DNA from: a bacterium
GTDB lineage: Bacteria; Patescibacteriota; Dojkabacteria; SC72; WJKH01
Length of the DNA: 63,219 nt
Assembly: GCA_029547225.1 (NCBI GenBank)
Contig: JAKPPS010000052.1
Location: 1-63,219, forward strand
Reading direction: 5' to 3'
Of the stretch, positions 2,737 to 37,392 are shown piece by piece. The notes beneath the pieces are model-generated. The model did no database searches and was not told the origin of the DNA. It worked only from the letters and a program-made list of their open reading frames with translations. The translations under genes and the position numbers were made by a program. Position 1 is the first letter of the stretch. Each line of letters starts with the position of its first letter.

Positions 2737-2737
2737 A

Positions 2738-4470: not shown

Positions 4471-4496
4471 CTTTATTTACCTAAATTAAGTTTTTT

Positions 4497-4883
4497 CTAT
4501 TTGATTGGCAGTAATTGCTGCTCTGCCCTTTTCTTCTCAACTTTTTTGTTCAATTTAGAATCTGATACTGACTGAGTAGTTTTTGATGATATATTGTTTT
4601 TTGCACTTATTTCTTTCTCGATATCTTTGATTTTCCACAAGAATAGTCGCCCTTTATTTTTAGCATTAGGGTAATCTATCGCGAATGAAAAAGCTTTTTC
4701 TAAAATCGCCCTTGGCTTATTCTTAGCTAATTTAATATACATAGAAACTCGCTTTAAGTCATCAAGTTTTAGAGCTAACCTATACCCGTAATCCTGAAAT
4801 TCTTTTGAAACATACTTATGCCGGTCAATAAACTGCTTTTTAATTTCTTCTTTATCTTGTAAAATACTTTTGATCCCTTGCAT
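4497..4883 (-). CDS. Hypothetical basic protein
   Basis: 128-aa ORF in a coding-dense context. No motif recognised. Confidence 0.5.
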   Translation of the reverse strand: MQGIKSILQDKEEIKKQFIDRHKYVSKEFQDYGYRLALKLDDLKRVSMYIKLAKNKPRAILEKAFSFAIDYPNAKNKGRLFLWKIKDIEKEISAKNNISSKTTQSVSDSKLNKKVEKKRAEQQLLPIK

Positions 4884-4921
4884 ATTTATATTCTATCAAA
4901 TATCGTATAATTTGAGTATAA

Positions 4922-6016: not shown

Positions 6017-6070
6017 TTATGTAATTATATTTTTGCTTTCTCGTATAATAATTTATAGCAAACAAATGAT

Positions 6071-7507
6071 ATGAAAATAACTGCAGTTGCAAAAAAGACA
6101 GTTCAGAAGAAAACTAAAGGAGTGAGGTATTCTTTTCGCAGGATTAATCTTATCATAGCGATGCTAATTACTGCATTAATAGCTTCTTTATCGGCTAATT
6201 ATGCAATAAGTACACCTGAGCAGGAATATTTACCTGAACAACAAAGTGGAAATGTAATTGATCTTAGTAAGTTAGAACTTTGTGATCGATTTAATTTAGA
6301 ATCAGATTACTTGATCCAAGATATTCAGTTGAGTAAAAATTGGGTACTAGTAGGAAATATAATTGATACTAATATGGGAAAACAGGATGTATCTGTAAGG
6401 TTATCACCTAAAAGTGCAAGATACTTTGACGCTTCTAATCCAATCGCCTTGACATATGAAATCAAGGATACTTCTGTAAGAGGTACTTTAGTTCAAAAGG
6501 AAGATATGTATACTTACGCATCTGAGATCGATACCTCAACATTAAATCCTGGAATATATTCAATTGTAATATCTGTATTCTTCCCTTGCGATAAGGTTGA
6601 ACTTGCGTCATCAGATTTTAATGTCAGTCAACCGATATATGTAACTTGGACTTTTGACTGGGAAGGTTACGACGTAAATCAGCAGTATCTGGATGATATG
6701 GCATATATTTCTGACACATTCCACATGCCTATGACACATTTTTTTAACCCTCGCCTGCTTATGACATCAACTGTTTCACAAGATCGCAAAAATTATCTTC
6801 TTTCATGGATCAATAATCGAATATCGAATAATGGGGATTCTATGGGTATGCATATGCATGGACTCTATGATTTTGTTGAAGGTGCCGGCGTAGAAAAATC
6901 TACTACTCCACGGTGGGGTGATAATTCTACTGATGGATATGATATACCAATTACTAATTATTCATACGAAGACATGATTAAACTACTGACCTACGCGAAA
7001 GATCTTTTTGAATTATATGGAATTCCCCAACCAAAATTTTTTAGAGCTGGTGGATGGTTTGCAAATTATGATGTACTTATGGCAATTAGAGACAGTGGCT
7101 TTCTTGCAGATTCCTCAGGAAGAACATATTACAAGATAGGTAACTTTGGTGTACCAGGATTTTGGAATCTTCAATCTACGACGCAACCTTATCAGATAAA
7201 TCTATATGATCAAAATATTTCCGGTGAACCATATTTGGGTTTAATGGAGTTTCCTAATAATGGTGCAGATTCATGGGCATTTACCTCAGATCAGATGATT
7301 AAAAGATTTACAGATAATTATTCTGGTGGCATTTCTGGTGAAACCAAACTAGTAACATATTTAAGTCACCCACATTGGTTTTATGTTGATAAGCAGAAAA
7401 TGATAGATATTTTTACATATATTGAACAGTATAAATATTCTGAAGATAAAGGCCCAGTAGTATATATCAATATGGATCAAGCATATCAGATTTGGTGTAG
7501 TAATTAA
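6071..7507 (+). CDS. Membrane-anchored extracellular protein, polysaccharide deacetylase-like (tentative)
   Basis: N-terminal anchor (INLIIAMLITALIASLSA). TWTFDWEG, MGMHMHG and FFRAGGWFANYD loosely resemble NodB/CE4-type motifs. Confidence 0.45.
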   Translation: MKITAVAKKTVQKKTKGVRYSFRRINLIIAMLITALIASLSANYAISTPEQEYLPEQQSGNVIDLSKLELCDRFNLESDYLIQDIQLSKNWVLVGNIIDTNMGKQDVSVRLSPKSARYFDASNPIALTYEIKDTSVRGTLVQKEDMYTYASEIDTSTLNPGIYSIVISVFFPCDKVELASSDFNVSQPIYVTWTFDWEGYDVNQQYLDDMAYISDTFHMPMTHFFNPRLLMTSTVSQDRKNYLLSWINNRISNNGDSMGMHMHGLYDFVEGAGVEKSTTPRWGDNSTDGYDIPITNYSYEDMIKLLTYAKDLFELYGIPQPKFFRAGGWFANYDVLMAIRDSGFLADSSGRTYYKIGNFGVPGFWNLQSTTQPYQINLYDQNISGEPYLGLMEFPNNGADSWAFTSDQMIKRFTDNYSGGISGETKLVTYLSHPHWFYVDKQKMIDIFTYIEQYKYSEDKGPVVYINMDQAYQIWCSN

Positions 7508-7552
7508 TATTTTTAAACTTCTTACTTGATAAAAAGATAACAAAGGAAAAGT

Positions 7553-9739: not shown

Positions 9740-9997
9740 TATTTAATACTTGCATCCGGAAAGAGCTCTAGATTTTATATAGAAATTTCTTCCCTTTTAT
9801 ATATCCAACCGTATTACATTAAATTTTCCGTCACCATTACAATCCATGCTCCGTGCTATAGAAAATACCCGATGCACCCTCTCTAAAAATCTACGAAAAA
9901 GGCACTATCTACGTGTCGAAGGTAATAAATCAAAATAGGATTGGGTAGTCATGGTCAGATAATTTGGGAACGCAATCTGGTTGGTGGCATACAAAAA

Positions 9998-11440
9998 TTA
10001 TGACTCTCGCTCCTCTTTTTTCATTTGAGGAAACATCGTCGTCATCCTAATTGGCATATCCATCATATAAGAAAATAATCTTTCACTTACTCCAAATCCA
10101 GTGACTGGAGGCATACCATATTCAAGCATTTCGATAAAATCATAATCAAGCATTTGTGCCTCATCATCACCACTATCTCGCATTTTCTGTTGCTCGAGAA
10201 ACCTATTTAACTGGTCTTCAGGATCGTTCAGCTCGCTATATCCATTACCCATTTCACTTCCTGCAATAAGTATCTGGTATCGTTCTGTTATTTCTGGATT
10301 ATCTGATTTACTTTTAGCTAATGGCGAAACAAATTTCGGTTGGTTTATAAGGAAAGCCGGACCCACAATATCTTTACGTATCTGTTTAAAAAGCAGATCA
10401 ACCAATCTATGTTTTGTACGACTCGGATCGAATTTAACATGTAATGAATCAAGTTTATTTTTAACATCGTCATGAGAAGCTGTTAGTACATCGATATCAA
10501 AATGTTTCTTGATAACACCTACATAATCAATTTTCTCCCAGTCTTTTGCGAGATCAAATGTCATGCCATTACGGACAAATTCTGTTTTGCCAAATACTTC
10601 TTTTGCGATATATCTATACATTTCTTGAACAAATGGCATCGCTGTTTCATAATTTTCATAAGCCCAATAGAACTCCATCATGTCATAATCCTGCAAATGT
10701 TCATCGTCTATTCCTTCATTTCTAAAGACTGGACCTATTTCGAAGACTTTATCAAATCCAGCACCTATGGCTTTCTTGAGTGGTAATTCCAAAGATATCC
10801 TCAGGTAAAATTTTGTATCTAGCGCTTTATGATATGTTTCAAATGGGTTTGCATCCGCTCCACCTGTTGTGTGTTCCAATACTGGAGTACGTACTTCAAC
10901 GAAATCGTTCCTTAACATATAATCACGCATTGCACGCCAGAAATTTCCCTTTTTTACAAAGATATCTCTCACTTCCGGATTCATTGTCATATCAAGATAT
11001 CTTTTTCTCAATCGAACCTCAACATCTTGAATACCTGACCATTTTTCTGGCAAAGGTCTCAATGATTTTGATACTATCGTGAGCTCTTTAACTTCAACCG
11101 AAATCTCACCTGTCCTAGTTTTAATCACAATACCTGTTGCAGAAACAAAATCACCGATATCAACCAATTTAAGATCAAAATTCGTTATATCGGCAACTCT
11201 AATAAATAATTGGACTCTGCCGGAGAAATCAATCAAAGATGCAAAGATCAGTTTTCCAATATCTCGCCATGCTAAAATTCGTCCCGCTACTGTAACCTCT
11301 TTACCTTCAAACTGATCATATTTTTCGGAAATGTCTTTGCAGTAAGCAGTACGTTTAGCCTTGGAAGGATATGGACTGATACCAGATGCTCTTAATTGAT
11401 CGATTTTTTGCCTTCTTTCAGCAACGATTGTCTCTAACAT
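9998..11440 (-). CDS. lysS: Lysine--tRNA ligase (class II)
   Basis: OB-fold N-terminus. Class II motifs include FRNEGIDDEHLQDYDMMEFYWAY and GNGYSELNDP. Confidence 0.95.
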   Translation of the reverse strand: MLETIVAERRQKIDQLRASGISPYPSKAKRTAYCKDISEKYDQFEGKEVTVAGRILAWRDIGKLIFASLIDFSGRVQLFIRVADITNFDLKLVDIGDFVSATGIVIKTRTGEISVEVKELTIVSKSLRPLPEKWSGIQDVEVRLRKRYLDMTMNPEVRDIFVKKGNFWRAMRDYMLRNDFVEVRTPVLEHTTGGADANPFETYHKALDTKFYLRISLELPLKKAIGAGFDKVFEIGPVFRNEGIDDEHLQDYDMMEFYWAYENYETAMPFVQEMYRYIAKEVFGKTEFVRNGMTFDLAKDWEKIDYVGVIKKHFDIDVLTASHDDVKNKLDSLHVKFDPSRTKHRLVDLLFKQIRKDIVGPAFLINQPKFVSPLAKSKSDNPEITERYQILIAGSEMGNGYSELNDPEDQLNRFLEQQKMRDSGDDEAQMLDYDFIEMLEYGMPPVTGFGVSERLFSYMMDMPIRMTTMFPQMKKEERES

Positions 11441-15702: not shown

Positions 15703-17031
15703 CTATTTTTTAAAGAGTTTGGATATCAGATCAAAGGAACCATATCTTTTGAAAAGGGCGTCAACATCTTGGTATGAACCCTCTGCGAATATTGTCAAGA
15801 CAAGGTTTATTAATTTATCAAGTTTTATCATGTTATCCATCTTTACATGTAATACATTCTCCTTAACGGTAAAAATACCCTTCTCATACCCATAATTAAA
15901 GATAATAGCAAAACCTTTCGCATATTCCATAATTGACATATTGTCGTGACGCCTATTAATCGCATCAATACCGTAGAGAATAAACGCAATTTTTATATCA
16001 TTAAAATCCTGTACAGTAAATAAGCCATTGATAACATAATACCTTGCTGATTTTATACCCATAAGGAAGGCATTGAGCTCACGCATACTATCATTATAAC
16101 CAAGCATCCTCTCATTAATTTTCTTAAATTTCAATAATGCCTCAGATATCTCATGAAGTGATACCATACGCAAATATGCAGTATTCATCCTATCCTCTGG
16201 GATATCAACAAGCTTTTGCGGAAGATACCTTTTAACAGGTTTCAAAATGGTGTCCGTCTTGTTGATCATCGAATTTTGGTAAAAAACAATCTTGGTTCCA
16301 TACTCTTTGACCATATCCGCATCATCGGGTAAGTTTGTACTTGACGGAGTACTACCAGCCTGTCTACCTGCGAAAGTGATTACATCTACAACGCTAACCT
16401 TTATTTTTTCCTTAGAAATATTTGAGGTTTCTATAGATAATGGTTTTAATATGATACCACTTTTGGCTATGTCAGCCATGTTCTGAACTTCTTTTGTCAA
16501 ATCAGGTCTGATTACCCGTAAATTATACTGAAAAGACCTTTTAACACCAAACATGGTGTCTTGATAAGAAGAAATCGGCCCGAGGAGCAGTGAGATCGGA
16601 CCATCTTCCGTTTTAACATAATCTACAATTACACTATCAAAATCGCCTTCATCAAAATCTTTAGCTAAATCTTTAAGATGTTTAGAAAAAACATTGTCTT
16701 CAGATAATTCACTAGCTTTAAGCAACAAAGCTATAATTTCTTCTATCTCTTCTTTATACTCTTCACGATATGAAACAGAAACCAAACCACCCGGTTCTTT
16801 TTTGACAACTGTATAATGAGATAATATGTCAGGATCGCTTATAGAAGCTTGCTCAATCTCTTGAGCTGTTACGCCATTAGGGTAAAAGAGAGAGAGTTTT
16901 TTTTCTTCATCAACTTGTTTGAGCCATATCCTATGAACCCAAGGAGCTATTTCCAGTAATATTTTTACAACTTCCTTTTGATTATTATTTAGAATATTCA
17001 GATCTACATCAAAATATTTTGGCTCTGACAT
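15703..17031 (-). CDS. Hypothetical cytoplasmic protein
   Basis: 442-aa ORF without TM segments. No confident family (the HEISE motif is not a canonical metal site). Confidence 0.5.
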   Translation of the reverse strand: MSEPKYFDVDLNILNNNQKEVVKILLEIAPWVHRIWLKQVDEEKKLSLFYPNGVTAQEIEQASISDPDILSHYTVVKKEPGGLVSVSYREEYKEEIEEIIALLLKASELSEDNVFSKHLKDLAKDFDEGDFDSVIVDYVKTEDGPISLLLGPISSYQDTMFGVKRSFQYNLRVIRPDLTKEVQNMADIAKSGIILKPLSIETSNISKEKIKVSVVDVITFAGRQAGSTPSSTNLPDDADMVKEYGTKIVFYQNSMINKTDTILKPVKRYLPQKLVDIPEDRMNTAYLRMVSLHEISEALLKFKKINERMLGYNDSMRELNAFLMGIKSARYYVINGLFTVQDFNDIKIAFILYGIDAINRRHDNMSIMEYAKGFAIIFNYGYEKGIFTVKENVLHVKMDNMIKLDKLINLVLTIFAEGSYQDVDALFKRYGSFDLISKLFKK

Positions 17032-20098: not shown

Positions 20099-20866
20099 TT
20101 AAAGAATTATTACTATCGCCATAAGAGCAAATAATATTGGTGGCAAATACCCACTAAAATGCCTTTCCCCTGATAACCTGATATGCCAGAATGACAATAA
20201 CATATAAAAAACAAGTACAATTGCAAACGGATACACAAAGAAATTTAATACTCTCGCAAAATACGCTACCAAACCGACAATAAAAGCAAATATTAGCGCT
20301 ATAAATAATCCAGTAGTCGTATACTGTTGAGAAATACTTAATGCAGAGATTAATAGCAACAGGACAGCTAATCCAGTAATTAGCGAAATTGTCTGATATG
20401 TAAATAATCCGGAATACTGCATCCCGCTAACGATGCAAAATATAAACACAATATTTATTAGATCAAAGATCACTCTCGTATTCTTCTCAATAGAATACTG
20501 CTTGAGATAAGAGCTTTTAATGTTAGTAAAAAGTATAAAGAGACAAATCACACCTATTAATATTATAAACTGCTTATAAAAATCATTACTAACAAAGAAA
20601 AGATAGAGAGATACCGAAGAAAAAAAGATCGAAGGTATAAATATGTAACTTATCCACCTCTGCTTTATCTGCATTTTTATCATTGTTTCAGAATATTGAG
20701 ATATCTTTCTTGTAGAGTATTTCGACAATGTTGTGATACACCATACAAGGACTAATACTAGACCTAGCCCATACATATAAATATGGAAGGAATTATCAGA
20801 AAACGATGATATTTCCCACAGTACGAATATCATAATTGTATAAACAAGTTCCTTTCTAAATGACAT
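20099..20866 (-). CDS. Polytopic membrane protein, hypothetical
   Basis: About 7 hydrophobic helices. It overlaps the upstream CAP-domain gene by 11 nt, which suggests co-transcription. Confidence 0.55.
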   Translation of the reverse strand: MSFRKELVYTIMIFVLWEISSFSDNSFHIYMYGLGLVLVLVWCITTLSKYSTRKISQYSETMIKMQIKQRWISYIFIPSIFFSSVSLYLFFVSNDFYKQFIILIGVICLFILFTNIKSSYLKQYSIEKNTRVIFDLINIVFIFCIVSGMQYSGLFTYQTISLITGLAVLLLLISALSISQQYTTTGLFIALIFAFIVGLVAYFARVLNFFVYPFAIVLVFYMLLSFWHIRLSGERHFSGYLPPILFALMAIVIIL

Positions 20867-22247
20867 TTCCTGTAAATCCCCAAATTAAACCTGAAACCAA
20901 TAAAAACCACCAAACTCCGACAAAAAGTAATGAGTATGATCTCTGAGCTAGTTTACCCATTTTTGCATAGTACTTAATCTCAATAATCATTAATACCATA
21001 ACTAACAATGCTATTGCGAAACCTACGATATCCTTGAAAGAATATTTTGTAAGAAGATTATCTTGAATAAAATTTACTAAAGTATTCTGCTCTGCTGTAT
21101 TTTCAGCCTTTGCAACAGAACTTAATATATTCGTTATATCTTTTTCAATACTATTACCATAAGCATCAGTTGCAATTATGGTTGCTGTTTTAACGTTCTT
21201 AGGTATCGTCACTGAATACATACCAGTTTTATTAATATTCATAACATAGCTTTTGCTACCAGCGCTCAGCAATATTTCTGGAGATTGCTCCGCTGTAGCA
21301 ACACTTATTTCAATATTTTTACCAAGAACGCTTGCAACAATTGCATCATCTGAAATTTCAGGAGGAGTTGTATCGACAATAAAATCGACTTGATCAAAAA
21401 TATCTTTGTTATTATCGGATGTCGCTTTAACTGTATTATTTCCTTCTGTCCAATCTCGATTTCCTATGTATTGCCATTTTCCATCGTCTCCGATAGAAAC
21501 ATTACCCAATGGTGATTGATTATTTTCAAGCACTAAAGTGCCTGCCTGCCCATCAGCGCTACCTTCGATACGTAGTCGGCTCTCATTAATCACCTGATTA
21601 TCCAAAGGATATGAGATTTTTATACTCTTGATCTCTCCACTCTCTTTGATTTGTTGAATCTTTTGACCACTTACTGACATTGGAGCTTCAACCACTTCAG
21701 ATGTGATATTACCAAACATTTGTACTACTAAAATAACATCTTCACCCAACAAATTTCCATTAACTACTGCGATGCCGATATCTTGGTAATTTCCACTTAT
21801 GATATTCTCTCTATGTGTTGGGCTTGCCATCCATGCCTGATGCAATCCCTCTGCAGTCTGAAAGCCTTTTGCTAAATTTTCGCCGGCAAAAACATATTCA
21901 TATTGAGCATCATCAATAAACTGCCATGGAGTTTGTCCATCTGGTCCAAAATGATCCCAATATTGATTAGCTAACATATCGTTTGCTTTTGCATATGCCG
22001 CGGAAGTGAGTTTAGCATTAGCTTTAAGCTCATTTAAATCATAATTTCTACGCTCTGAATTAGTGTATTCGATAAGCTTATCTGCAGTTATTGAACTGGC
22101 ATAAGCCTTCTGCTGTAATCCAGGAACATATAAAGGTATGAAATTTGAGATTAGGATCAAAAATGTATAAAAAAGCAATGCCACCTTACGTAAAAGATAT
22201 GGTTGATATTTATTTTTTTCATGTGGTATAAAAAGCAGTTTGAGCAT
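20856..22247 (-). CDS. CAP/SCP (YkwD-like) domain protein with Ig-like region and C-terminal TM helices
   Basis: NSERRNYDLNELKANAKL..., GENLAKGF, HQAWMASPTHRENII and YQDIGIAVV are CAP-domain motifs. There is an N-terminal anchor and two C-terminal helices. Confidence 0.75.
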   Translation of the reverse strand: MLKLLFIPHEKNKYQPYLLRKVALLFYTFLILISNFIPLYVPGLQQKAYASSITADKLIEYTNSERRNYDLNELKANAKLTSAAYAKANDMLANQYWDHFGPDGQTPWQFIDDAQYEYVFAGENLAKGFQTAEGLHQAWMASPTHRENIISGNYQDIGIAVVNGNLLGEDVILVVQMFGNITSEVVEAPMSVSGQKIQQIKESGEIKSIKISYPLDNQVINESRLRIEGSADGQAGTLVLENNQSPLGNVSIGDDGKWQYIGNRDWTEGNNTVKATSDNNKDIFDQVDFIVDTTPPEISDDAIVASVLGKNIEISVATAEQSPEILLSAGSKSYVMNINKTGMYSVTIPKNVKTATIIATDAYGNSIEKDITNILSSVAKAENTAEQNTLVNFIQDNLLTKYSFKDIVGFAIALLVMVLMIIEIKYYAKMGKLAQRSYSLLFVGVWWFLLVSGLIWGFTGNVI

Positions 22248-27004: not shown

Positions 27005-30000
27005 TTACTTTACTCGAACAAAATACCCCGCATTTGGAAAAAGTTTATAGTCAAACCCGTAATCTGTGTCATCTATAGATAAATAATTTTTATACTGGCC
27101 ATTTTCCCATTTTGAAACTGTATCAATATCGGATGATAATATTTCATTATCATTGTTTATTAGTGTATCCGCTGTCATATCCTTAATTGGATTTGGTATA
27201 CCTATTAAGTTCCAGCCGATATTTAAGTCATAATTAGGATTTTCTGTAAAACGGTGTCCGTTTAGCCTGAAAGATATTTTACTTTCGGCTTTAACAAAAT
27301 AGGCCTCACCAGGTAATATTGAAAAGTTTTCTCCATAAGGAATATCGCCTCTACGTGATGAAATCATCCACTTACCATCTCGATAAGTAGAAATGTGCAT
27401 TATTGGTATATCCTGAGATTGAAAATATGTTAACAGTTGTTGTGAATCCTGAATTGTTCGACCATTTGCATCGCTTATGACCATAGGTATGGATATAAGA
27501 TTCCAACCTTTTAGCATATCATAATCCGTAAAATGAATTTGAGATTCTAACTCAACAGTAACCGTATCAAGTATTGGTTCATTTTCCTGTTTTATGCCGT
27601 CTTTATTTAGGTCATTAAATACTTTTACCTCTTGTCCCGGTGAATAGAATATATATTTTGAAGTAGTCTGATAACCCTCAACTGATGGAGTATACATTCC
27701 TTCGTACTGAGTGTCTTGCGCTTTTACTTTATTTATAAAAATGTTTTCTAATATGGATGAACCTTGAGAAGTTGTTACTCCAACTAAAACCTCATCTGTT
27801 CTACATTTCAAAGAATAAGTTGCATAATTTAATATTGCAGAAGGATATTTAGAACAAAAATCGTAGTTCTTCTCTAAAGCTAGGCTATAAGATTCACATG
27901 AAGCGTTTTTAAGTATTCCATCTGCAAGAGTCTGGCCAATATCGCTTTTAACATCTTCATAAACCTGAGTGCCACATTTTTCGTTTCCATTACTATCATA
28001 AAAAATATAACCTCCACCATTATTAGATCGAGCTTCAGCACCTACTTCTGTAGCTACCGTCCTACAAAAAGTATAATTAGAACCAGAAACAAATCCACAT
28101 CCAGCGAGATCTGATAATTTCCCTTCATTTAGTTTATCTAGGTACTCTTTATCGGATTTGAATAATTGGATATAGTGACCAACTTCATGTTCAAGAATAT
28201 CGTATTTTGCACAATTACTTATTGTGTTAATCCATGTTCCACACTGCAGGGTTGAGCCAGATGCGAGACAACCTGTATCGCCAGAAGTTAAAATTAGTCC
28301 GCCATAATTTACACAATTTTCACATTTAGCATCTGTATTGCTGTTACATCCACATTCTTTATTATAAATTTCCCGCCACATTTCTTCAGTATCGAGAGAA
28401 TTTACTTTATTTTTTTCTTTTTTCCATATTTCATCAGAGATATAGCTTGGCTTTCCAGAACATAGTCCATCGTTAATAACTTGTGAAGCTTGACAAGCTG
28501 AATTATATTGATCCAAAATGCACATTGAGGATTGACAAGTAAAACCATATACACAATTGTGAGTAGATCCTGTCCAAGTACAGCTTTCTCCGTCTAAAGC
28601 ATTATGCTCAACTCGATTTTCGAGATATGCTTCACCACAGGATAATTTGCCAAAATCTCCTCCAAGTAAGCCTTGTTCATTTTGACCTTCTTGATTGTGT
28701 TCATAAAAATTTTCACAATAATCGTCTCCAGATTCATTTTCAATACAAATCCCGCTCAAACACCTTTTTGGTATTTCACAATCATTCGGATCACCCTCTT
28801 TACATCTAGCTAATGAAGCACCTGTATCATCACAAAAATATTTTTTTGCCGGAATTTCATTAGTAATGGATGTCTTACTCTTGCAAACTCCTTTCGTATA
28901 ATCCCATGTGCATCCGAGATTTAATCCTTCACCTACTTGATTACATGCATCTATTGAGAGCAATAAATCACATCTATCACACCCACGGTTTCCAAGAGTC
29001 TTTTTTGCAGTATCATCAATATTGCATAGTTTATTACTTTTATCTACTTCTATAAATGGTCCACAAAAATACTGCCATTGGCAATTCTGTCTACCATCCT
29101 CGCACTCTTCTTCACACCCATTTTTCTTATCAAGATCATCACATTTATCGTTACCACATGTACAATCTTGAGCACAATTTTCACCTGTGTCACATTCTCC
29201 GTCTCCGCATTTGTTCTCAGCTGGCGGATTGATTGGAGCTGCACGCATAACACATCTACCACTCCTAACTTCACAGCCGATACTTGCAAATGCTTCACAA
29301 TCTTCGACTGGTATTTTCGAGCAAGCATCAGCAAAAACTTGATTAATTAACAGACTATTACTCGATTCGGAGAAGTCTTTCAATTGATCATTTTGAGTTT
29401 CAATAAATGATAATTTTTCTAAGACGATATTATCAACTGGTTTAATCTTTGTATTGGGCACCTCTATTGTTTTCTTTGCGTATGGTCCAATAGCCTCAAC
29501 TACTAAAGTCCAGTCTTTTTCAAAAGTCATTTCTTGACCAGTGACAGAATAAATTGTACCAATATCCATACTCCAACCAGTACCATTATCTGTCACAGAA
29601 GTAAGATTCTGTGAAACACCATCAGTAGGGTTTTTTACATATGCCCTTACTATTACATCATCATATGTCTCCCCATATTGATCAAATACATATCCATAAA
29701 TAGGATTAGGTGTTTTGATGGATTCACGAATAGGAAAAGTATTAATACTTCCGCCGAGACTTGTGGTAAAGATGCCTGTATTAAAACGATAATTGTATTC
29801 AGTTTCTGGATCTAAGCCATAGATTGTTACGTGATGAGAATAATATTTACCTTTATCTATCAATTCATATTTCCCTTGACTTATCTCTTCAATATCTCTT
29901 GTATCATAAAATTTCTTATTATTTTGGAGAAAAGATAATATGAAAAACTTATTATCTGTGCTAATTTCTATTTCGCCTGGATATTTTGTATATGTCGTCC

Positions 30001-30205
30001 ATGATAATGTCGCACTATTTGAAGTAATATTGGATATCGTAATATTATTTACTTCACCTTTATAATTTCGATCTGTAATCAAATACCAAACATATACCCC
30101 CGCTACAATAAGTACAATTACTGCTAAAACAATAGCTATTATTGTTAGAGTTCTTGATTTTTTCTTAACTGTCGGTTCATTTATTATCGCTTGATTCTCG
30201 AACAT
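27005..30205 (-). CDS. Giant cysteine-rich surface protein, paralog C (1066 aa) with HEVGH zincin motif
   Basis: N-terminal anchor (TIIAIVLAVIVLIVAGVYVWYL). FN3/PAP-N-like domain (ATLSWTT...HHVTIYGLDPETEYNYRF). Cys-rich core including CGDGECDTGENCAQDC. HEVGH at 28175-28189. C-terminal GWNL/PGEAYF tandem module. Confidence 0.85.
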   Translation of the reverse strand: MFENQAIINEPTVKKKSRTLTIIAIVLAVIVLIVAGVYVWYLITDRNYKGEVNNITISNITSNSATLSWTTYTKYPGEIEISTDNKFFILSFLQNNKKFYDTRDIEEISQGKYELIDKGKYYSHHVTIYGLDPETEYNYRFNTGIFTTSLGGSINTFPIRESIKTPNPIYGYVFDQYGETYDDVIVRAYVKNPTDGVSQNLTSVTDNGTGWSMDIGTIYSVTGQEMTFEKDWTLVVEAIGPYAKKTIEVPNTKIKPVDNIVLEKLSFIETQNDQLKDFSESSNSLLINQVFADACSKIPVEDCEAFASIGCEVRSGRCVMRAAPINPPAENKCGDGECDTGENCAQDCTCGNDKCDDLDKKNGCEEECEDGRQNCQWQYFCGPFIEVDKSNKLCNIDDTAKKTLGNRGCDRCDLLLSIDACNQVGEGLNLGCTWDYTKGVCKSKTSITNEIPAKKYFCDDTGASLARCKEGDPNDCEIPKRCLSGICIENESGDDYCENFYEHNQEGQNEQGLLGGDFGKLSCGEAYLENRVEHNALDGESCTWTGSTHNCVYGFTCQSSMCILDQYNSACQASQVINDGLCSGKPSYISDEIWKKEKNKVNSLDTEEMWREIYNKECGCNSNTDAKCENCVNYGGLILTSGDTGCLASGSTLQCGTWINTISNCAKYDILEHEVGHYIQLFKSDKEYLDKLNEGKLSDLAGCGFVSGSNYTFCRTVATEVGAEARSNNGGGYIFYDSNGNEKCGTQVYEDVKSDIGQTLADGILKNASCESYSLALEKNYDFCSKYPSAILNYATYSLKCRTDEVLVGVTTSQGSSILENIFINKVKAQDTQYEGMYTPSVEGYQTTSKYIFYSPGQEVKVFNDLNKDGIKQENEPILDTVTVELESQIHFTDYDMLKGWNLISIPMVISDANGRTIQDSQQLLTYFQSQDIPIMHISTYRDGKWMISSRRGDIPYGENFSILPGEAYFVKAESKISFRLNGHRFTENPNYDLNIGWNLIGIPNPIKDMTADTLINNDNEILSSDIDTVSKWENGQYKNYLSIDDTDYGFDYKLFPNAGYFVRVK

Positions 30206-30222
30206 ATTACTAATATGATAAA

Positions 30223-33200
30223 TTATTCAGGCAAAAACTCATCGCCTGTCACACTTAAGACTCTGACAAAATAACCATAGTTTGGATAAACATTATAATC
30301 ATAACTATACTCTTCTTCACCGGTTTTTACAATATTGATATACCTACCATTGTCCCATTTACTCAATGTATCAGATGTAAACCCAGAACTATTCAGTTGA
30401 TTTAAAATCTCAAATCCGGAATAATATTCTTTATTTGAATTATAAATACCAATTAAATTCCATCCAGGATTCAAAATTACTGGCAAAACTCCATCTACTT
30501 TTTTACCTACAAGCTCTATCAAAGCTTCTCTATGATTCAATATGAAATATGCTTCACCAGGAATAATACTAAAATCATCACCGAATGGGACGATCGATCC
30601 TTCTTCATCTTCACGCAAAGAATATGAATAAAATTTTCCATCTAAATACGTCGAAATTGACGTTATATCTGCATTTTGGAGATTTGCAAAATAGATCAGA
30701 TCAGATGCTTTCGATAATTTTGAGGAATTATCACCTTCAAAGACATACGGGAAATGCAACAAATTCCAACCAACTTTTAATTTATATTGTGCTACTGTAT
30801 TTTCCTTATATATTTTATATCCCATTGATTTGATTATTTTATTTGAAATATAATAATCATCACCATTCATAATCCCATTGTTATCAAGATCCTTATAAAA
30901 CACGATCGTATCATCTGGGCTCACGTACAAAGTTTTAACAATATTGTCATAACTCGTTATTGAAAAAACACCAGAATCTAATTCTTCTACTTCTTCATTA
31001 CTCGATGTATTCTTAATAAATAGTTTATCTAATTGATTATTAGATAACTCAAGGCTGGAAGTAGTGACTGGCTCTAAAGTAGGTTTTCTATCACAATTAA
31101 TAAACGGCCCACCCGGGAATGAATCAAAAAGCTCCTTTTGTTTCTCAACGGTACAGCTTTCCTTATCCACTCCAGCCATACCAAAATGAAGATGATATTC
31201 TGTTGATATAGATCCCGTATTTCCAGTAATAAGATTGGTACAATCACCTATATATGCATCATTTTCTTGACCTCCACAAGATAATGCATCTAAATGGCCA
31301 AGCTCAAATACCGTATTCATCTCCGATGTTACAAAAGCTGTACAACCTTCAGTTGTCCACTTTGTATAACAACCGTCTGGGAAGTAATCGTTAATGATAT
31401 CTTCTGAAAGTGGCACAGAAGTAACTGCGATATCTATTGCACAAGTAAAATCTTTGAATTGGTCTCTGTCGTCAGAATGGGACAAATAGGAATTTGAATT
31501 ATTTATTATTGCAGGTCCTTGGGAAACGGGAACATATTTATTTCCGATACCAACACATAATCCAGTTTGAGTACTGCTATTAAACGGAAGTTCGTTAATA
31601 CTAATGCAAGTGTTCGTATATCCGTTTTTATTATCTGGAAGATAGAAAGTCGTACACCTTCCATTTGTACCATCAAAACTACATTCTTCAAGAGAATATT
31701 CCGAGCATTCCTTTTCTTCTACAATCTTACTATTACAACGATATGACGAGTCAGATACCCTAGTCCATTCACAAAGAAGAGAATATTTATCACATATTTC
31801 TTTATACTTTATTGATGAGCATACTGGTTTTTCTACTGTTTCGTATTCATTTGGGAGAGGAAGGTCGTCTTTTGCAGAAATACATTTTTCATAATTTGTA
31901 TCCCATTTGCATCTCTCATCGAGCGAACATCTTGTTAAATCAAATTTATTGCATTCTGAAATTGCATTAATACATCTTCCATATGGGTTACTAACACCTT
32001 CGTTGGTTGGTGGAATGTATATGCAGCGATTACTTGTTTTGCATATTGCTTCTGGGAAGAGCTCACAGTTTTCAAGACTTGCTGGAATATCACGACAAGA
32101 TTCAATACCATTTTCATCAGTTGCCCACTCACAATCTGAATTATTTTTTCCACACTCTAACTGTGAAAAGGAACTACAACTTTGATAATTAGAAATGTTC
32201 ACACCAAATCCCTTTGCAAAAACTTCATGTGTACATACTGAGTTCCATACACAATCACCTCTTTTACAATCATCTTCGTTTAGATAAACACCACACTGCT
32301 CAACCGGTAATGCCAAAATTGGGTTATTACTTCTAACACAAGAATCATCCTTTGACAGATCTTTACTTTCTCTACAAACATATCCGTTTGCACATTCTTT
32401 TATTGTGCCACTAATGACATTAGATAATTTATTATCTTGCGTACATTTTAGTCTTTTTTGAGATACACCTTCCTCATCACCCTGATCATTGATTACATTT
32501 TTATCAGCACACCAATTATCACAATCTAAATTTCCATGTGAGTCAAAATTTAAATCACTATTTTTTACACACGATTTTATATTATTACACTTACATTGAG
32601 TTTCGTTTTCTTTACATTTGTTATTATTAAATGTACCCGTAACTGAAATTCCAGTATTTGTTTTACACTTACTCGAAGTCTTATCGCATATTTGATTACT
32701 CGAACATTGGCCACAAGTACCACCACAACCATCAGAGCCACATTCTTTATTATCACAAGAAGGTTTACAGGTGATAGAGTTATCTTCCTTACCTGCAGTA
32801 GTTTTATCTACATCTGATATTTGTGCAGAAAATACCTTAGGAAGCAAATTTAAAATTTCTTGCTGTTGGTCGCTATTATTATTAAGAATCATTTGCTCAG
32901 TTGGTTGTATATCTTCTATCGGTGAATACGATGTTGATGAATAAGATGAGTTTATCGCATTAACAGTTAATTCAGAATTACCATATATTGGATATTTTGA
33001 AGTGCCATCTGATAATCTAATGTTTGCAAGATCAATCGACCAACCTCTTTTACCATCTAAAGGATAACTATATATCTGTGAAACCACATCTTGATCGTCT
33101 GAAATAGTAAATATAACTAGGGAATCTTCAGATAATTGACCGAATTCGTCCGTAACAATACCATATGCTGGTTGCGGAGTTGAGATTTCCTCAAGCGTAG

Positions 33201-33672
33201 AAAAAGTCTCGAAAGACAAATCAGAATATGAAGGTAAAACTAGGAAGCCAGAGAAAATACTAAAATGATAGTCTTTGCTTGGAGAGAGATTATCTATCGT
33301 AATACTATGTGTATAGCGAGGAAGTTTTTTGTATGAATAGCTATCTTTATCAATCTCGATTTTGTCTCTGTCATCATATATTCTTGCATTCTGGTTAAAC
33401 GATAAAAATGTCTTCTGAGAAGAATCATTTACTATTAAGCTTCCTGTACTTTTATACGTAGTTGTCCAAGTAATTGTAGCGCTTGTATCAGTAATATTTG
33501 TAACCATTAAGTTGTTTACTGATCTAGAAACAATAATATTCCAAATTAAATTACTAAGAAGAAATAAAATTACTATTGTCAATAACCCAATCAATAATTT
33601 ATTGAGTATACTAGAATTGTTCTGATCTGTTATTTTTGTTGACTTATTAAATTTTGTTTCTGAAGGATTCAT
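30223..33672 (-). CDS. Giant cysteine-rich surface protein, paralog B (1149 aa) with M23/LytM-like signature
   Basis: Same N- and C-terminal modules as the other two paralogs. Contains CGSDGCGGTCGQC, about six 4-Cys repeats, and AIDIA...LGHL...GNTGSISTEYHLHF (31174-31452). It lies 17 nt upstream of paralog C. Confidence 0.85.
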   Translation of the reverse strand: MNPSETKFNKSTKITDQNNSSILNKLLIGLLTIVILFLLSNLIWNIIVSRSVNNLMVTNITDTSATITWTTTYKSTGSLIVNDSSQKTFLSFNQNARIYDDRDKIEIDKDSYSYKKLPRYTHSITIDNLSPSKDYHFSIFSGFLVLPSYSDLSFETFSTLEEISTPQPAYGIVTDEFGQLSEDSLVIFTISDDQDVVSQIYSYPLDGKRGWSIDLANIRLSDGTSKYPIYGNSELTVNAINSSYSSTSYSPIEDIQPTEQMILNNNSDQQQEILNLLPKVFSAQISDVDKTTAGKEDNSITCKPSCDNKECGSDGCGGTCGQCSSNQICDKTSSKCKTNTGISVTGTFNNNKCKENETQCKCNNIKSCVKNSDLNFDSHGNLDCDNWCADKNVINDQGDEEGVSQKRLKCTQDNKLSNVISGTIKECANGYVCRESKDLSKDDSCVRSNNPILALPVEQCGVYLNEDDCKRGDCVWNSVCTHEVFAKGFGVNISNYQSCSSFSQLECGKNNSDCEWATDENGIESCRDIPASLENCELFPEAICKTSNRCIYIPPTNEGVSNPYGRCINAISECNKFDLTRCSLDERCKWDTNYEKCISAKDDLPLPNEYETVEKPVCSSIKYKEICDKYSLLCEWTRVSDSSYRCNSKIVEEKECSEYSLEECSFDGTNGRCTTFYLPDNKNGYTNTCISINELPFNSSTQTGLCVGIGNKYVPVSQGPAIINNSNSYLSHSDDRDQFKDFTCAIDIAVTSVPLSEDIINDYFPDGCYTKWTTEGCTAFVTSEMNTVFELGHLDALSCGGQENDAYIGDCTNLITGNTGSISTEYHLHFGMAGVDKESCTVEKQKELFDSFPGGPFINCDRKPTLEPVTTSSLELSNNQLDKLFIKNTSSNEEVEELDSGVFSITSYDNIVKTLYVSPDDTIVFYKDLDNNGIMNGDDYYISNKIIKSMGYKIYKENTVAQYKLKVGWNLLHFPYVFEGDNSSKLSKASDLIYFANLQNADITSISTYLDGKFYSYSLREDEEGSIVPFGDDFSIIPGEAYFILNHREALIELVGKKVDGVLPVILNPGWNLIGIYNSNKEYYSGFEILNQLNSSGFTSDTLSKWDNGRYINIVKTGEEEYSYDYNVYPNYGYFVRVLSVTGDEFLPE

Positions 33673-33730
33673 ATAAAGTAAGAAATATTAATGTACTATA
33701 AATACTATTGTAAATTTATTCTTTAGTCAA

Positions 33731-33757
33731 CAAAACGGGCGACATTATTCGCCCGTT
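33731..33757 (-). terminator. Rho-independent terminator between paralog A and paralog B
   Basis: The stem aacgggcg/cgcccgtt (33734-33757) reads on the minus strand as CGGGCG-loop-CGCCCG followed by TTTTGTTG. Confidence 0.7.
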
Positions 33758-33795
33758 AAGTAAACTAAATATGAATACGTTTACCAATAAGTATT

Positions 33796-36700
33796 CTATT
33801 CAGGGATATAGCTGCCACCTGTTTCACTTAATACCTTAACAAAGTAACCGGCTGTTGGGAAAACCTTATAATCATAGCCATATTCCATGTTATCAGAATA
33901 TACTACTGAATTGTACTTACTATTTTCCCATTTACTTAAGGTATCAGCGACTACTCCCTGACCTTCCATCTGCTTGAGAACATCGAAGGCTTGATAGTTA
34001 TCTACATCTTGTTTGTAGATATTGACTAAATTCCAACCTGGAAGAAGTTGTAGTGGCAAGGCATTTTCATATGCATAACCAACCATAGAAGCTGTTCCAC
34101 TATTTCTACTCTTTACAAAATATGCTTCACCCGGAAGAATAATGAAATTATTACCAACTTCAACATCCTCTCCATTAATATCTTCCTTCATTGAGTATGA
34201 TTCAAACTTGCCTTCACGGTATGTCGCTATCTCTTCAACTAAAATTTCTCTCGCTCTTAGATATTCGTAAATGTCATTTGCAGTTGAAGACTTTTCTTGA
34301 TCAAGAACAAATGGGAAGGATACTAAATTCCAACCTTTACTAAAATCATAGTTTTTTGCTGATTCCACCATCACATAACCAACACCAAGATTTTCGACTT
34401 CATAAGGAGTAAGGATTCTTTCGCCCTCATCTCTGACATTATTTTTGTTCGCATCGTCAAAATAAGCAATATGCGTTTCATTACTTAAGACTAATTTCTC
34501 ATTTGCATTCCCTGTTGATGTATAAATACCAGGTTTTAAGACAGGATCAGAGATTACATTTTCTTGTGCTTTTACATCATTTTTAAAGATATTTAATAAG
34601 GAATTAGTCTCTGTTTCTCCTTCAACTCCAACTTCTAATGTACTCATACCACATGGAAAAGCCCCTGATGGAATATAATCTGTAATGCTTGCGCAGGGTT
34701 TCCAATCTCTTTGTTCATATGTTGGATAGAAAATAGAAACTACTTCATCCTGAATATTTAATTGATTATCATTACAGACAGTCATGGTTGTACAGTCTTC
34801 ACTTTGATAATCAAGATTTGTCAACTTATAAATTTGATCTGAAAAAACTAAATCATTATTCTTACTGCTTATTGAAACTGAAGCTGAGCATTTATTATTC
34901 TCCCAATCGTATTCAGCAGAGCAACCAACTTCGTAGCCGTACAAATCATCCTCTGAGTAATTAGGAAATATTGAGTTAATAGACAGGCCATCTTCCGGAA
35001 GTTCAATTTCAACGTTACAATAACCTTCCTCAGTATTTGAAAGATCACTTATTGGTTTTTCATCTCCACCAACAAATACGCAGTATTCTATTCCTTCTTC
35101 GTTTGAATCTCCAACTTTGAAGCTTATTCCGGATTCACAATTCCCTTCACCTGCTTCAATAACACCATTATTATTACTATCAAGTTCAACCCATGCACAT
35201 GACATGCTTTCTGCTCCATATACATAATGCTCATTGCATTCTTTTTTTCCATATTGAGTTAATGATTCACAACCCTCAACATAAGGCGAAAACGGAAGTG
35301 TACAAACTCCTTCACCCGAAGCAAAAGCTGTCCAATCATAACCATACTTCAAGCATTTTTGCTCATCAAAAATCTGATCAGGTTTTATGGCATTTTGTTC
35401 AATAAAAGACGAATCTACACAACCTGTAGAATTAGAATCGACAAAATAGCTATTTTGAGAATGCGTATCACTTGCAACTACTGTAATTGTCTGATTTTGT
35501 TCATTATTATCTATCCAAGCGCAGCCTGCTTCTAGACAACGACCTACGAGAGGAAATTCCGAATCAAAATCATTAATAGCCTCACAATTGACCTGGCCAT
35601 TAATCATGTAAGTAGCACATTCATCATCTTCGTTGTCATCATTTACCACACAATCACAATCCTCATAGAGAACCTGTTGGTTTAATTGGTTATTTCTATA
35701 CAATGCACCTGTTGCTCGATCACACACATACTGTTTCGAACTTTCTTGACAAAACCCCTCATCCTCTCCTGGTCGCACAAAAAATTCACATTTCAAATCA
35801 TCAAGCATGTTTTCGCAACCTTCTTCTGAATTAAAATCCATACATTCATCTATTCCATCATATATACACTCATTATTCGAACAATACATCCCATTTGTAC
35901 ATTCCGCTAAGTCTGTAAAGCAAGCTCTTCCCACTTCTTCTTTTACACAGGCACCCTCGCCATCGTCAATGTCTCCATCTGCGACATCTACTTTACTCAT
36001 TGGCTCACAATATTCATTAGATTTACAATCAGTATTTTTGGTACAAGAAGTATAATTCTCGACTTCATAGTAATCTCCCTCAGAAGTTTGGTACATACAC
36101 TTTCCATTTAAGCAGAATTGATTTTGTCCGCATTCCTCGTTTTTACTACATGCAAATACAGTAGGAAAGCCCTTAACACATTTATTTTTTATACAATCAT
36201 ATTGACTATCTCTACAATCATCTGCATTATTACAATAATCAAATTTTTGACATGTTGGAGGGCGATTTCCGACTCTAATACATTTTAGATTTTGATCACA
36301 TGAATCATCTTCATCTAATTCACATCTATCTCCGACTCGTGCAGGTCGTTCTGTTTCTGGTTGACTTTGATTTTGTTGACTAGTTGAACCTGATACAGAA
36401 TTTTGAGAAGGAGTCGGCTGAGTATCTGTAGCAGGCTTGGGTTTTAAAAATGATCCAGAAACGGAGCCACCAGATCTAGGTGAATCTCCTCCTCCATCAA
36501 TTACTGGATCTTGTTCAAACGGATTAGCAGCAAACAATCGGTTTACAAGAAGTTTATTCGACTCTTTAACGATCTCCTCTGCGTCATCTGATTTAATTAT
36601 TAAATCAGGGCATGGTGCGATATTCTCTGCATTAAATTGAATCGATTTCTCTTTTCCATCTACAATAGCTGAAAGCTCTGCTATAACTTCATTATCAAAT

Positions 36701-37392
36701 ACAAACAATTCGTCAGAATCTTGTATGCGTATATTTGCAATATCAATCGTCCATGTATTGTTATTACTTGCCAAAGCAGATAAAATTTGTGATTTTTGAT
36801 CTGCACGATTAACAAATGATATCGTAACAATAGGATTATCGTTAACCTCATTTGCCACAGATATTGCGCCAAAAGTAGGTTTTGGTGTAGTCATTGTTTC
36901 GAGTTCTGAATATGTTTTGAACTTTTGACTGAATTTATCGATTGGAAGCACAAAATCTGATATTGCTATCGAATACTCTTTTGAAGATTCCAGCCCGCTT
37001 ACTACGACATAGTGATTATAGTATTTACCCTGATCAACTTTCACAAACTGATTTGGGGATATCTCCTGATAATCGCGAAAGTCAAAGTACTTGTAACCAG
37101 TAATAAAATCAAAAAGTTTATTTTCGTTTTTGTCAGTAAGATAGACTATTGAGCTTGTAGGTTTTGTTGTAGTCCACGATATTGCGGCAGATTCTGAGGT
37201 TATTGAGGTGATTTGAAAATTTGAAATATCCTTTGCGTTATTCTGATTAATTAAATATATTGCTATGCCACCGATTATAGCAATAAAAAGAACTAGCAAA
37301 ATGTAAAACCACCATTTTGAAAGAATCAATTTCTTTGATGTGCTCGCAACATTTTGTGTTGCAACATCAGCAGTTTGATCTTGAGTGACCAT
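33796..37392 (-). CDS. Giant cysteine-rich surface protein, paralog A (1198 aa), no catalytic motif seen
   Basis: N-terminal anchor (WWFYILLVLFIAIIGGIAIYL). FN3-like domain (AAISWTT...HYVVVSGLESSKEYSIAI). Ser/Gly/Pro/Gln linker. EGF- or knottin-like Cys repeats. C-terminal GWNL/PGEAYF tandem module ending LSETGGSYIPE. Confidence 0.85.
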   Translation of the reverse strand: MVTQDQTADVATQNVASTSKKLILSKWWFYILLVLFIAIIGGIAIYLINQNNAKDISNFQITSITSESAAISWTTTKPTSSIVYLTDKNENKLFDFITGYKYFDFRDYQEISPNQFVKVDQGKYYNHYVVVSGLESSKEYSIAISDFVLPIDKFSQKFKTYSELETMTTPKPTFGAISVANEVNDNPIVTISFVNRADQKSQILSALASNNNTWTIDIANIRIQDSDELFVFDNEVIAELSAIVDGKEKSIQFNAENIAPCPDLIIKSDDAEEIVKESNKLLVNRLFAANPFEQDPVIDGGGDSPRSGGSVSGSFLKPKPATDTQPTPSQNSVSGSTSQQNQSQPETERPARVGDRCELDEDDSCDQNLKCIRVGNRPPTCQKFDYCNNADDCRDSQYDCIKNKCVKGFPTVFACSKNEECGQNQFCLNGKCMYQTSEGDYYEVENYTSCTKNTDCKSNEYCEPMSKVDVADGDIDDGEGACVKEEVGRACFTDLAECTNGMYCSNNECIYDGIDECMDFNSEEGCENMLDDLKCEFFVRPGEDEGFCQESSKQYVCDRATGALYRNNQLNQQVLYEDCDCVVNDDNEDDECATYMINGQVNCEAINDFDSEFPLVGRCLEAGCAWIDNNEQNQTITVVASDTHSQNSYFVDSNSTGCVDSSFIEQNAIKPDQIFDEQKCLKYGYDWTAFASGEGVCTLPFSPYVEGCESLTQYGKKECNEHYVYGAESMSCAWVELDSNNNGVIEAGEGNCESGISFKVGDSNEEGIEYCVFVGGDEKPISDLSNTEEGYCNVEIELPEDGLSINSIFPNYSEDDLYGYEVGCSAEYDWENNKCSASVSISSKNNDLVFSDQIYKLTNLDYQSEDCTTMTVCNDNQLNIQDEVVSIFYPTYEQRDWKPCASITDYIPSGAFPCGMSTLEVGVEGETETNSLLNIFKNDVKAQENVISDPVLKPGIYTSTGNANEKLVLSNETHIAYFDDANKNNVRDEGERILTPYEVENLGVGYVMVESAKNYDFSKGWNLVSFPFVLDQEKSSTANDIYEYLRAREILVEEIATYREGKFESYSMKEDINGEDVEVGNNFIILPGEAYFVKSRNSGTASMVGYAYENALPLQLLPGWNLVNIYKQDVDNYQAFDVLKQMEGQGVVADTLSKWENSKYNSVVYSDNMEYGYDYKVFPTAGYFVKVLSETGGSYIPE

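Follow-up and report, generated by a model that had tools for sequence, protein, structure and literature searches.

A divergent, cysteine-rich M23/LytM-type domain in a predicted membrane-anchored protein of Candidatus Dojkabacteria

Can an M23/LytM-type peptidase domain be recognised in a large, cysteine-rich protein when the first histidine of its expected zinc site is replaced by threonine, and is such a domain likely to be an active enzyme? The question is raised by one open reading frame, here called ORF B, in a window of 63,219 nucleotides (the whole stretch of DNA analysed) from Candidatus Dojkabacteria. An earlier note had described an M23/LytM-like peptidoglycan endopeptidase signature at 31174-31452, and translation confirms that these positions of the minus strand encode residues 741-833 of ORF B, reading DFTCAIDIAV...TAFVTSEMNTVFELGHLDAL...AYIGDCTNLITGNTGSISTEYHLHFGMA and including T743-C744-A-I-D747, H793-L and an HLH triplet at 31186-31194.

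According to its translation, ORF B (30223-33672, on the minus strand like every feature described below) encodes 1149 amino acids, arranged as an N-terminal membrane anchor followed by FN3-like, cysteine-rich, M23-like and conserved C-terminal parts. The N-terminal tail is lysine-rich and precedes a single predicted transmembrane anchor (residues 23-47; 33532-33606; Kyte-Doolittle mean 2.58 for the best 19-mer), across which the alignments with homologues extend. An FN3-like/purple-acid-phosphatase N-terminal-like domain at residues 52-141 (33250-33519; PF16656, E 4.7e-8) is followed by a variable cysteine-rich region at residues 302-699 (31576-32769), which carries a CG-DGCGG-CG-C repeat at 302-329, and by the M23-like domain at residues 700-864 (31081-31575), which contains eight cysteines. 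The conserved C-terminal domain (residues 893-1149; 30226-30996) has two GWNL-type repeats and is the hallmark of a protein family with 1451 members in a representative search, the best 150 of which were used here; it is modelled by AF2 with a pLDDT of 91, and a fold search of the PDB with it gave no fold match. Only 10 of the 1149 residues of ORF B are histidines, and four of these (732, 793, 827 and 829) lie within the M23-like stretch.

Pfam finds no PF01551 in ORF B, either in the whole protein at E<=1 or in the isolated segment at E<=10, and the family check suggested earlier was thus negative even at a very permissive threshold. The NCBIfam scan of the protein and of the segment gave no M23 match, and phmmer searches of the PDB with both returned noise only (Fibcon, E 2.4; Pal, E 0.65). 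A home-built HMM of phage M23 domains gave a borderline E value of about 0.013-0.015, and single-sequence hhalign of ORF B against M23 a probability of 46%. The two closest relatives had no match to PF01551 at E<=0.1, and the more distant ones reach 18-28 bits only, the gathering score of this model being 28.7 bits. In the first homologue search, which was word-indexed, the CG-DGCGG-CG cysteine repeat accounted for most of the matches, and the sole PF01551 protein among them, P0011, was rejected because it had matched via this unrelated repeat and not via the M23 region (pairwise E 1.7). In a plain MAFFT alignment of ORF B, lysostaphin, LytM and P0011, motif 1 fell out of register, so that nothing could be learned from it.

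Homologues of the segment occur at the equivalent position in proteins of the same architecture (P0014, E ~1e-33 to 6e-33; P0013, E ~1e-27 to 2.5e-27), and relatives with 41-45% identity retain D747, H793, H827 and H829. When seven sequences were aligned and compared by hhalign with an independent M23 alignment of 73 domains (71 phage-encoded ones, lysostaphin and LytM), a match spanning all three motifs was obtained (97.6%, E 3e-12). Alignments of 17-19 sequences matched M23 profiles at 97.8-98.2% (E 8e-13 to 5e-14), including the 17-sequence alignment from which two near-canonical members had been left out (97.8%, E 8e-13); reversed and ten column-shuffled controls gave at most 0.5% probability and E values of at least 0.11. 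All proteins retrieved with the seven-sequence profile from 5.8e9 proteins carry a PF01551 annotation (E 4.6e-6 to 6e-3), and the 19-sequence profile matched 34 M23/LytM entries in the PDB, among them TagE/Csd (8e-12), zoocin A (1.6e-9), LytM (6.5e-6), lysostaphin (2.5e-4), LasA (5.8e-3) and ShyA. Pfam's own model finds PF01551 in seven of the 19 aligned modules at E<=0.01 (best 7.4e-22). Other family members have a near-canonical M23 domain at the equivalent position (P0150, 2.7e-17; P0077, 2.4e-16, with the phage HMM), and a continuum from canonical to divergent domains therefore exists within the family.

The hhalign register agrees with the earlier reading in that T743 (codon 31444-31446) falls on the first histidine of the canonical Hx3D motif, with C744 (31441-31443) adjoining it; D747 (31432-31434), the proposed zinc ligand of this HxGxD-equivalent strand (31432-31446), falls on the aspartate, H793 on the histidine of 'xHL', and H827 and H829 on HxH. 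The H793-L794 pair (31291-31296, with H793 at 31294-31296) would provide the catalytic histidine 34 residues before HxH, is aligned to His82 of lysostaphin and lies 46 residues after D747, while the glycine-rich 'GxTG' loop ahead of HxH is represented by G817-N-T-G820 (31213-31224), both glycines of which are invariant. D747, H793 and H827 are present in all 19 aligned modules, H829 in 16 and C744 in 15. Many different residues occur at position 743 across the subfamily (T, G, A, S, F, V, K and R, among others), and the 18 divergent members all lack a histidine there. An upstream [S/T]-H, located 7-15 residues ahead of the invariant aspartate and most often spaced as H(x)8D, is found in 16 of the 19 modules; two of the three members without it, P0033 and P0150, also lack the second histidine of HxH. 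In ORF B the upstream histidine is H732 (31477-31479), part of an S-H-S-D motif and separated from D747 as H(x)14D, and hhalign against M23A places it on His23 of LasA and the conserved QG on the QG of LasA.

The M23 family is defined by H(x)nD and HxH, with spacings such as H(x)12D in LasA and H(x)7D in gp13 (PMC9662197), and the conservation of the upstream histidine together with its alignment to LasA His23 fits this definition. To judge from the alignments, the 'missing' first histidine is most likely H732, 15 residues upstream of D747, as a putative zinc ligand. The site had been suspected to be degenerate or to use a different ligand; given the upstream histidine and the variability four residues before the aspartate, it is probably neither degenerate nor liganded by threonine or cysteine. 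C744 was dropped as the favoured candidate for an alternative metal ligand: it stands three residues before the aspartate and, by simple alternation, should face the opposite side of the β-strand, and the histidine set persists in members where N, R, I or A takes its place. As one of seven to eight conserved cysteines of an extracellular domain, it is more likely to take part in a disulfide than in metal binding, and the same probably holds for the other conserved cysteines.

The AF2 model of the M23-like domain has a pLDDT of 80.7 and a pTM of 0.81. Foldseek against the PDB returned M23/LytM structures as all of its top 18 matches, although these are weak (best E 9.6e-3, TM 0.3-0.4); the top set includes 2638A endolysin, LasA, Csd, ShyA, zoocin A and beta-lytic protease. 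Among viral structures, too, every top named match is an M23 protein (best E 1.2e-3, probability 1.00). A short helix stands in place of the usual 'GTPVxAxxxGxV' strands, a segment that is unrecognisable in the ORF B sequence, and the loop bearing H732 has a pLDDT of about 55 and a six-residue insertion in ORF B. We propose a trimmed M23 scaffold, whose central catalytic sheet would be formed by the strands AIDI, CTAFVTS, VFELGHL and LHFGM.

Among characterised systems, the best profile matches are with M23B (lysostaphin, LytM, zoocin A, ShyA, TagE/Csd; PF01551), with which ORF B has in common the 'xIDIA' strand, 'xHL' and 'GxTGxxTGxHLH', as well as motif order and spacing (hhalign 97.8-98.2%, PDB E values down to 8e-12). 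It differs from them in the replaced Hx3D histidine, the unrecognisable 'GTPVxAxxxGxV', the seven to eight additional conserved cysteines and a similarity below the detection of PF01551. The interval from aspartate to histidine and from histidine to HxH is 46/34 in ORF B, 46/31 in lysostaphin and 46/39 in beta-lytic protease, and the additional catalytic histidine found about 30 residues before HxH in LytM (His260) and LasA (His81) corresponds to H793. In M23A (LasA/staphylolysin, 3IT5; beta-lytic protease, 8AF1; pseudoalterin, 6IK4) the first histidine lies well upstream of the aspartate, as H732 does in ORF B, and the [A/S]-H-[S/T/N]-[N/D] context, the upstream QG and HxH are likewise common to both. 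LasA and pseudoalterin act on elastin. The M23A domains are secreted and contain cysteines, as that of ORF B does, and are among its top fold matches, and their long H(x)12-13D motif is similar in spacing to the x14 of ORF B (modal x8 in its subfamily), but the cysteine positions differ, and sequence similarity is marginal (LasA E 5.8e-3; hhalign 50-87%, against about 98% for M23B, figures that are not directly comparable since the M23B alignment is much deeper). Moreover, M23A enzymes are free secreted proteins, whereas the domain of ORF B is internal to a membrane-anchored protein with no sign of an M23A-type propeptide. Non-canonical H(x)nD spacing is also known from gp13 of phage phi29 (H(x)7D; PMC9662197), and the M23 domain of phage 2638A endolysin (6YJ1) is the top Foldseek match in the PDB, a weak one (E 9.6e-3, TM 0.32); both are phage lysins, in contrast to the cellular surface protein considered here.

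With H732 available and D747, H793, H827 and H829 retained, ORF B therefore has a full candidate catalytic set. In M23 enzymes zinc is bound by the second histidine of HxH, while water is activated by the first (PMC9662197), roles that may by analogy be assigned to H829 and H827, and the catalytic set of beta-lytic protease consists of His22, Asp36, His82, His121 and His123 (PMC8715609). In ORF B, zinc would be held by H732 and D747, as H(x)14D, and by H829, and water would be positioned and activated by H793 and H827, as in LasA, beta-lytic protease and lysostaphin. One N-terminal transmembrane helix would anchor the protein, with the FN3-like domain, about 400 cysteine-rich residues, the M23 domain and the C-terminal double-repeat domain outside the cell, so the enzyme would be displayed on a long stalk (about 700 residues) outside the Candidatus Dojkabacteria cell. 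The bonds cut are most likely those of peptides in peptidoglycan cross-links or stems, which may belong to the cell's own wall or to that of a partner. Residues ~700-864 form a previously unannotated, cysteine-rich addition to the known M23 family, and it is quite likely that they constitute a stalk-displayed zinc metallopeptidase using H732/D747/H829 and H793/H827, the peptide bonds of peptidoglycan being its most likely target; the domain is thus probably an active extracellular peptidoglycan endopeptidase.

Two paralogues flank ORF B in tandem and have its N- and C-terminal domains in common, and the M23 histidine motifs are found in neither. In paralogue A (1066 aa; 27005-30205) no M23-like module is detectable. 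Residues 768-873 of paralogue C (1198 aa; 33796-37392) may be a decayed relic of the module (34774-35091; hhalign E 1.3e-3, probability 18%), with E at the position of D747, N at that of H793 and DEV in place of HLH.

The absence of the motifs from both paralogues, together with the failure of ORF B alone to match PF01551, NCBIfam or any PDB sequence and the discovery of P0011 through an unrelated cysteine repeat, might suggest that the motifs arose by chance in a low-complexity, cysteine-rich spacer and that no M23 domain exists. This is next to impossible, as the profile searches against other profiles, the protein database and the PDB all lead to M23 while the negative controls stay clean, Pfam's model recognises seven of the 19 homologous modules, and the fold search has only M23 at its top; the chance pattern is refuted by the profile and Pfam results, and the M23/LytM-like signature proposed earlier belongs to a genuine domain.

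A domain derived from M23 could also be catalytically dead and serve in binding or regulation, for example by gripping peptidoglycan or by activating another hydrolase, as in EnvC, NlpD or DipM. Degenerate M23 folds occur commonly and do have functions (PMC9662197), the LytM domains of DipM, SpoIIQ and EnvC are among the profile and fold matches and belong to the same fold family, and T743 at the canonical histidine position, the invisibility of ORF B to Pfam and a β-sandwich partly missing from the AF2 model would all be compatible with such a role. Nevertheless, we regard this as unlikely, if well worth keeping in mind: degenerate LytM factors (EnvC, NlpD, DipM, SpoIIQ) lack the zinc ligands, whereas ORF B has a plausible full set, with H732 as candidate, and its relatives keep D747, H793, H827 and H829. 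Relaxed constraint at the same locus looks different, as paralogue C illustrates with a relic that resembles the degenerate state. An active M23 peptidase might instead cleave a protein, such as a host surface protein or a neighbouring surface protein during maturation, and the placement of the first histidine and the top fold matches do resemble the cluster of LasA, beta-lytic protease, pseudoalterin and 2638A, which has broad specificity (PMC9662197). Peptidoglycan is, however, the target of most characterised M23 enzymes (PMC9662197), and the locus itself gives no hint of a protein substrate, which makes this reading distinctly improbable.

Taking the domain, then, as a probable peptidoglycan endopeptidase, its wider meaning can be considered. 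M23 peptidases are ubiquitous, so one more of them is no surprise. An M23 clade in surface proteins of Candidatus Dojkabacteria escapes Pfam and NCBIfam, and the cell-wall hydrolase repertoires of these bacteria are therefore under-counted. The clade is also a further natural case of variation in H(x)nD spacing, on a trimmed cysteine-rich scaffold, and helps to define the minimal M23 core. Bacteria of the CPR are regarded as dependent on other cells, and an extracellular lysin held on a stalk is a concrete candidate for attack on a host wall or for remodelling of the cell's own. It is conceivable, though unlikely and put forward as speculation, that the family, with interchangeable cysteine-rich modules in the middle of its proteins, serves an episymbiotic CPR bacterium as a modular toolkit that works on contact. 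The disulfide-stapled M23 domain of ORF B would then be the blade opening the host wall and the decayed or swapped modules of the paralogues would reflect diversification against different hosts.

The closest named relative of ORF B, HNZ70786.1, is annotated as 'hypothetical protein' only. A scan of a genome collection relied on one peptide pattern and for that reason yielded no more than three loci. The contig encoding P0013 is 4 kb long.

Ordinary bacterial genes in the window (~33% GC) include EF-G, RNase Y, YmdB and a YifB/ComM-like ATPase, and there is also a run of short minus-strand ORFs. Three tandem minus-strand paralogues, A (27005-30205, 1066 aa), B (30223-33672, 1149 aa) and C (33796-37392, 1198 aa), show pairwise identities of 26-28%; they have the N-terminal part and the final ~260 residues in common but show little conservation in the Cys-rich middle, and an N-terminal FN3-like/purple-acid-phosphatase-N domain is the sole Pfam match in each. 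Translation of B exactly reproduced the strings of residues 741-833 (31174-31452) in which an earlier note had recognized an M23/LytM peptidase signature, with T743-C744-A-I-D747, H793-L794 and H827-L-H829 (31186-31194) placed as it had stated. Four (732, 793, 827 and 829) of the ten histidines of B fall inside this M23-like stretch.

As long as B was considered alone, a chance pattern was a live explanation for these motifs. The Peptidase_M23 match by which the earlier note would have its assignment checked was not returned by Pfam, either on whole B at E<=1 or on the isolated segment at E<=10; an NCBIfam scan of B gave nothing relevant, phmmer of B against all PDB sequences found no match, and HLH is missing from A and C in the paralogue comparison. 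Against chance, however, homologous modules and profile searches converge on M23. Scanned exhaustively with HMMER at E<=1e-3, 1.84 billion representative proteins yielded 1451 relatives of B, nearly all with the N- and C-terminal domains, and a subset aligns across residues 600-880. Segment 690-880 is strongly matched by the two closest module relatives, P0014 (E 6e-33) and P0013 (E 2.5e-27), and more weakly by others. The aligned modules display textbook M23 features, namely a 'C-x-[IVLF]-D-[ILV]' strand, with 'GTP[LI]' after it in many cases, then '[RY]-x-[AGS]-H-L' and '[ST]-G-x-[ST]-G-x(2,4)-G-x-H-L-H-[VFY]-E', and C706, D747, H793, G817, G820 and H827 are invariant across 19 sequences.

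These alignments were compared by hhalign with an independent M23 reference of 71 phage-encoded domains (IMG/VR) plus lysostaphin and LytM. A 7-sequence family alignment matched at 97.6% probability (E 3e-12), all 19 sequences at 98.2% (E 5e-14), and 17 sequences, with two near-canonical members left out, at 97.8% (E 8e-13), while reversed and ten column-shuffled controls stayed at <=0.5% (E >=0.11). Searched against 5.8 billion proteins, the 7-sequence profile retrieved five, all annotated PF01551, and the 19-sequence profile matched 34 M23/LytM entries in the PDB (best 8e-12). Pfam itself calls PF01551 in 7 of the 19 modules (best 7.4e-22), other relatives at 18-28 bits fall just short of its 28.7-bit threshold, and P0150, P0077 and P0034 have a near-canonical M23 at the equivalent architectural position; the PF01551 model detects neither B nor P0013 nor P0014. 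This transitive and profile evidence establishes the homology of B's domain to M23, though the curated model cannot reach B itself.

The AlphaFold2 model built from the 19-sequence alignment (pLDDT 80.7, pTM 0.81) is supportive, not decisive. Foldseek against the PDB gave M23/LytM proteins at ranks 1-18 (including 2638A endolysin, LasA, Csd1-Csd2, ShyA, StM23, zoocin A, beta-lytic protease, SpoIIQ, EnvC and pseudoalterin), as weak matches with a best E of 9.6e-3 and TM of 0.3-0.4, and the top named matches among predicted viral structures were all M23 (best E 1.2e-3, probability 1.00). The strands bearing the catalytic residues are retained and an irregular Gly/Cys-rich loop precedes HLH, and the 'GTPVxAxxxGxV' strands of M23B enzymes are replaced by a short helix; the modelled domain would thus be a trimmed M23 core.

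The first metal ligand had been described as atypical and the site as perhaps degenerate. The former stands, since the hhalign register on lysostaphin sets T743 on His32, the place of the Hx3D histidine, D747 on Asp36, H793 on His82 and H827/H829 on His113/His115; a degenerate site is disfavoured, as H732 completes a candidate set. Position 743 is T, G, A, S, F, V, K, R, I, Y, Q or N across the subfamily and never His, and is therefore not the ligand position here. C744, at -3 from the Asp, is kept in 15 of 19 sequences and belongs to 7-8 conserved cysteines (706, 744, 768, 777, 811, 840 and 860, plus 799 in B), which would form disulfides. An upstream His in [S/T]-H context, in many cases with a Tyr before it, is found 7-15 residues N-terminal of the Asp in 16 of 19 sequences; in B it is H732 (S-H-S-D), 15 residues ahead of D747. 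Of the three members without it, two (P0033 and P0150) lack the second HxH histidine as well. The M23 family is defined by H(x)nD and HxH, with H(x)12D in LasA and H(x)7D in gp13 (PMC9662197), and the catalytic residues of beta-lytic protease are His22, Asp36, His82, His121 and His123 (PMC8715609), giving a spacing of 14/46/39/2 against 15/46/34/2 in B. Aligned by hhalign with an M23A set of LasA (checked identical to PDB 3IT5), pseudoalterin and beta-lytic protease (sequences from alignment output), H732 falls on LasA His23 and a conserved 'QG' on LasA 'QG' (50-87% probability); the H732 loop has a pLDDT of ~55 in the model. Read most economically, B possesses a complete candidate catalytic set via H(x)14D, and B is most likely an active, zinc-dependent, extracellular endopeptidase on peptidoglycan peptides. 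The M23 enzyme family, its variable H(x)nD spacing and its degenerate relatives are already known, and the novelty here is a divergent, cysteine-rich, unannotated M23 clade within an undescribed CPR surface-protein architecture.

B is probably type-II-anchored with the remainder extracellular, because a strongly hydrophobic helix at residues 23-47 follows a Lys-containing N-terminus and homologues align across it. In the stretch 33508-33672, the public gene call, P0001 (1094 aa), leaves out this predicted transmembrane helix by beginning at Met56; homologues align from residue 22, which favours the ATG at 33672 as the start. The C-terminal domain of ~260 aa (30226-30996, minus strand, B residues 893-1149), also ending A and C, defines the family, with at least 1451 proteins conserving it. 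It apparently comprises two ~100-aa repeats, with GWNL[IV] at the start of each and a P-G-E/x-[AG]-Y-F-[IV]-like strand at the end, and its AF2 model is very confident (pLDDT 91, pTM 0.81); since Pfam has no family for it and the PDB no matching fold (best TM 0.17), it could represent a fold or domain family not yet described. The M23-type module is one among several interchangeable middle modules, because ~22 of the best ~150 of the 1451 members carry it. Across the tandem paralogues (27005-37392), whose ends are conserved and Cys-rich middles divergent, only B has it intact: C holds a weak relic (hhalign E 1.3e-3) in which D747, H793 and HLH have become E, N and DEV, and the same comparison found no trace in A.

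MAGs of Candidatus Dojkabacteria encode the C-terminal domain, in some cases in tandem paralogues (loci L081-L083), and HNZ70786.1 of that group, annotated as a 'hypothetical protein', is the closest named relative. L082 holds a tandem pair of the family (2335-6693 and 6743-10912), and in the L083 homologue the module is intact, showing H(x)7D, 'GHL' and 'HAH'. In L081 (2-1045, minus strand), a separate ORF cut by the locus end pairs a coiled-coil-like region with an M23 domain whose end reads ...GAHLHFGV...NPCNYLPGGSYGSCG, with a C-terminal tail, 'NPCxYxPGGC', that is also the tail of the surface-protein M23 modules; this common tail suggests that a lineage-specific M23 type may have been their source.

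B also contains a Cys repeat, C-x-P-x-C-x2-K-x-CG-x-DGCGG-x-CG-x-C (32686-32769, minus strand, residues 302-329), which dominated the word-indexed homologue search and is 50-65% identical to repeats of unrelated multi-domain proteins (P0004-P0012) whose annotations or domains include agmatine deiminase family, PPC, LamG and M23+SLH. Elsewhere in the window lie two probable extracellular proteins, one with Big_5 repeats and a Peptidase_C39_2-like domain (7553-9739, plus strand) and one with CAP (cysteine-rich secretory protein) and Ig-like domains (20856-22247, minus strand), and a 442-aa ORF (15703-17031, minus strand) with a partial Peptidase_M49 (dipeptidyl-peptidase III) match (E 5e-9, profile positions 68-300 of 548).
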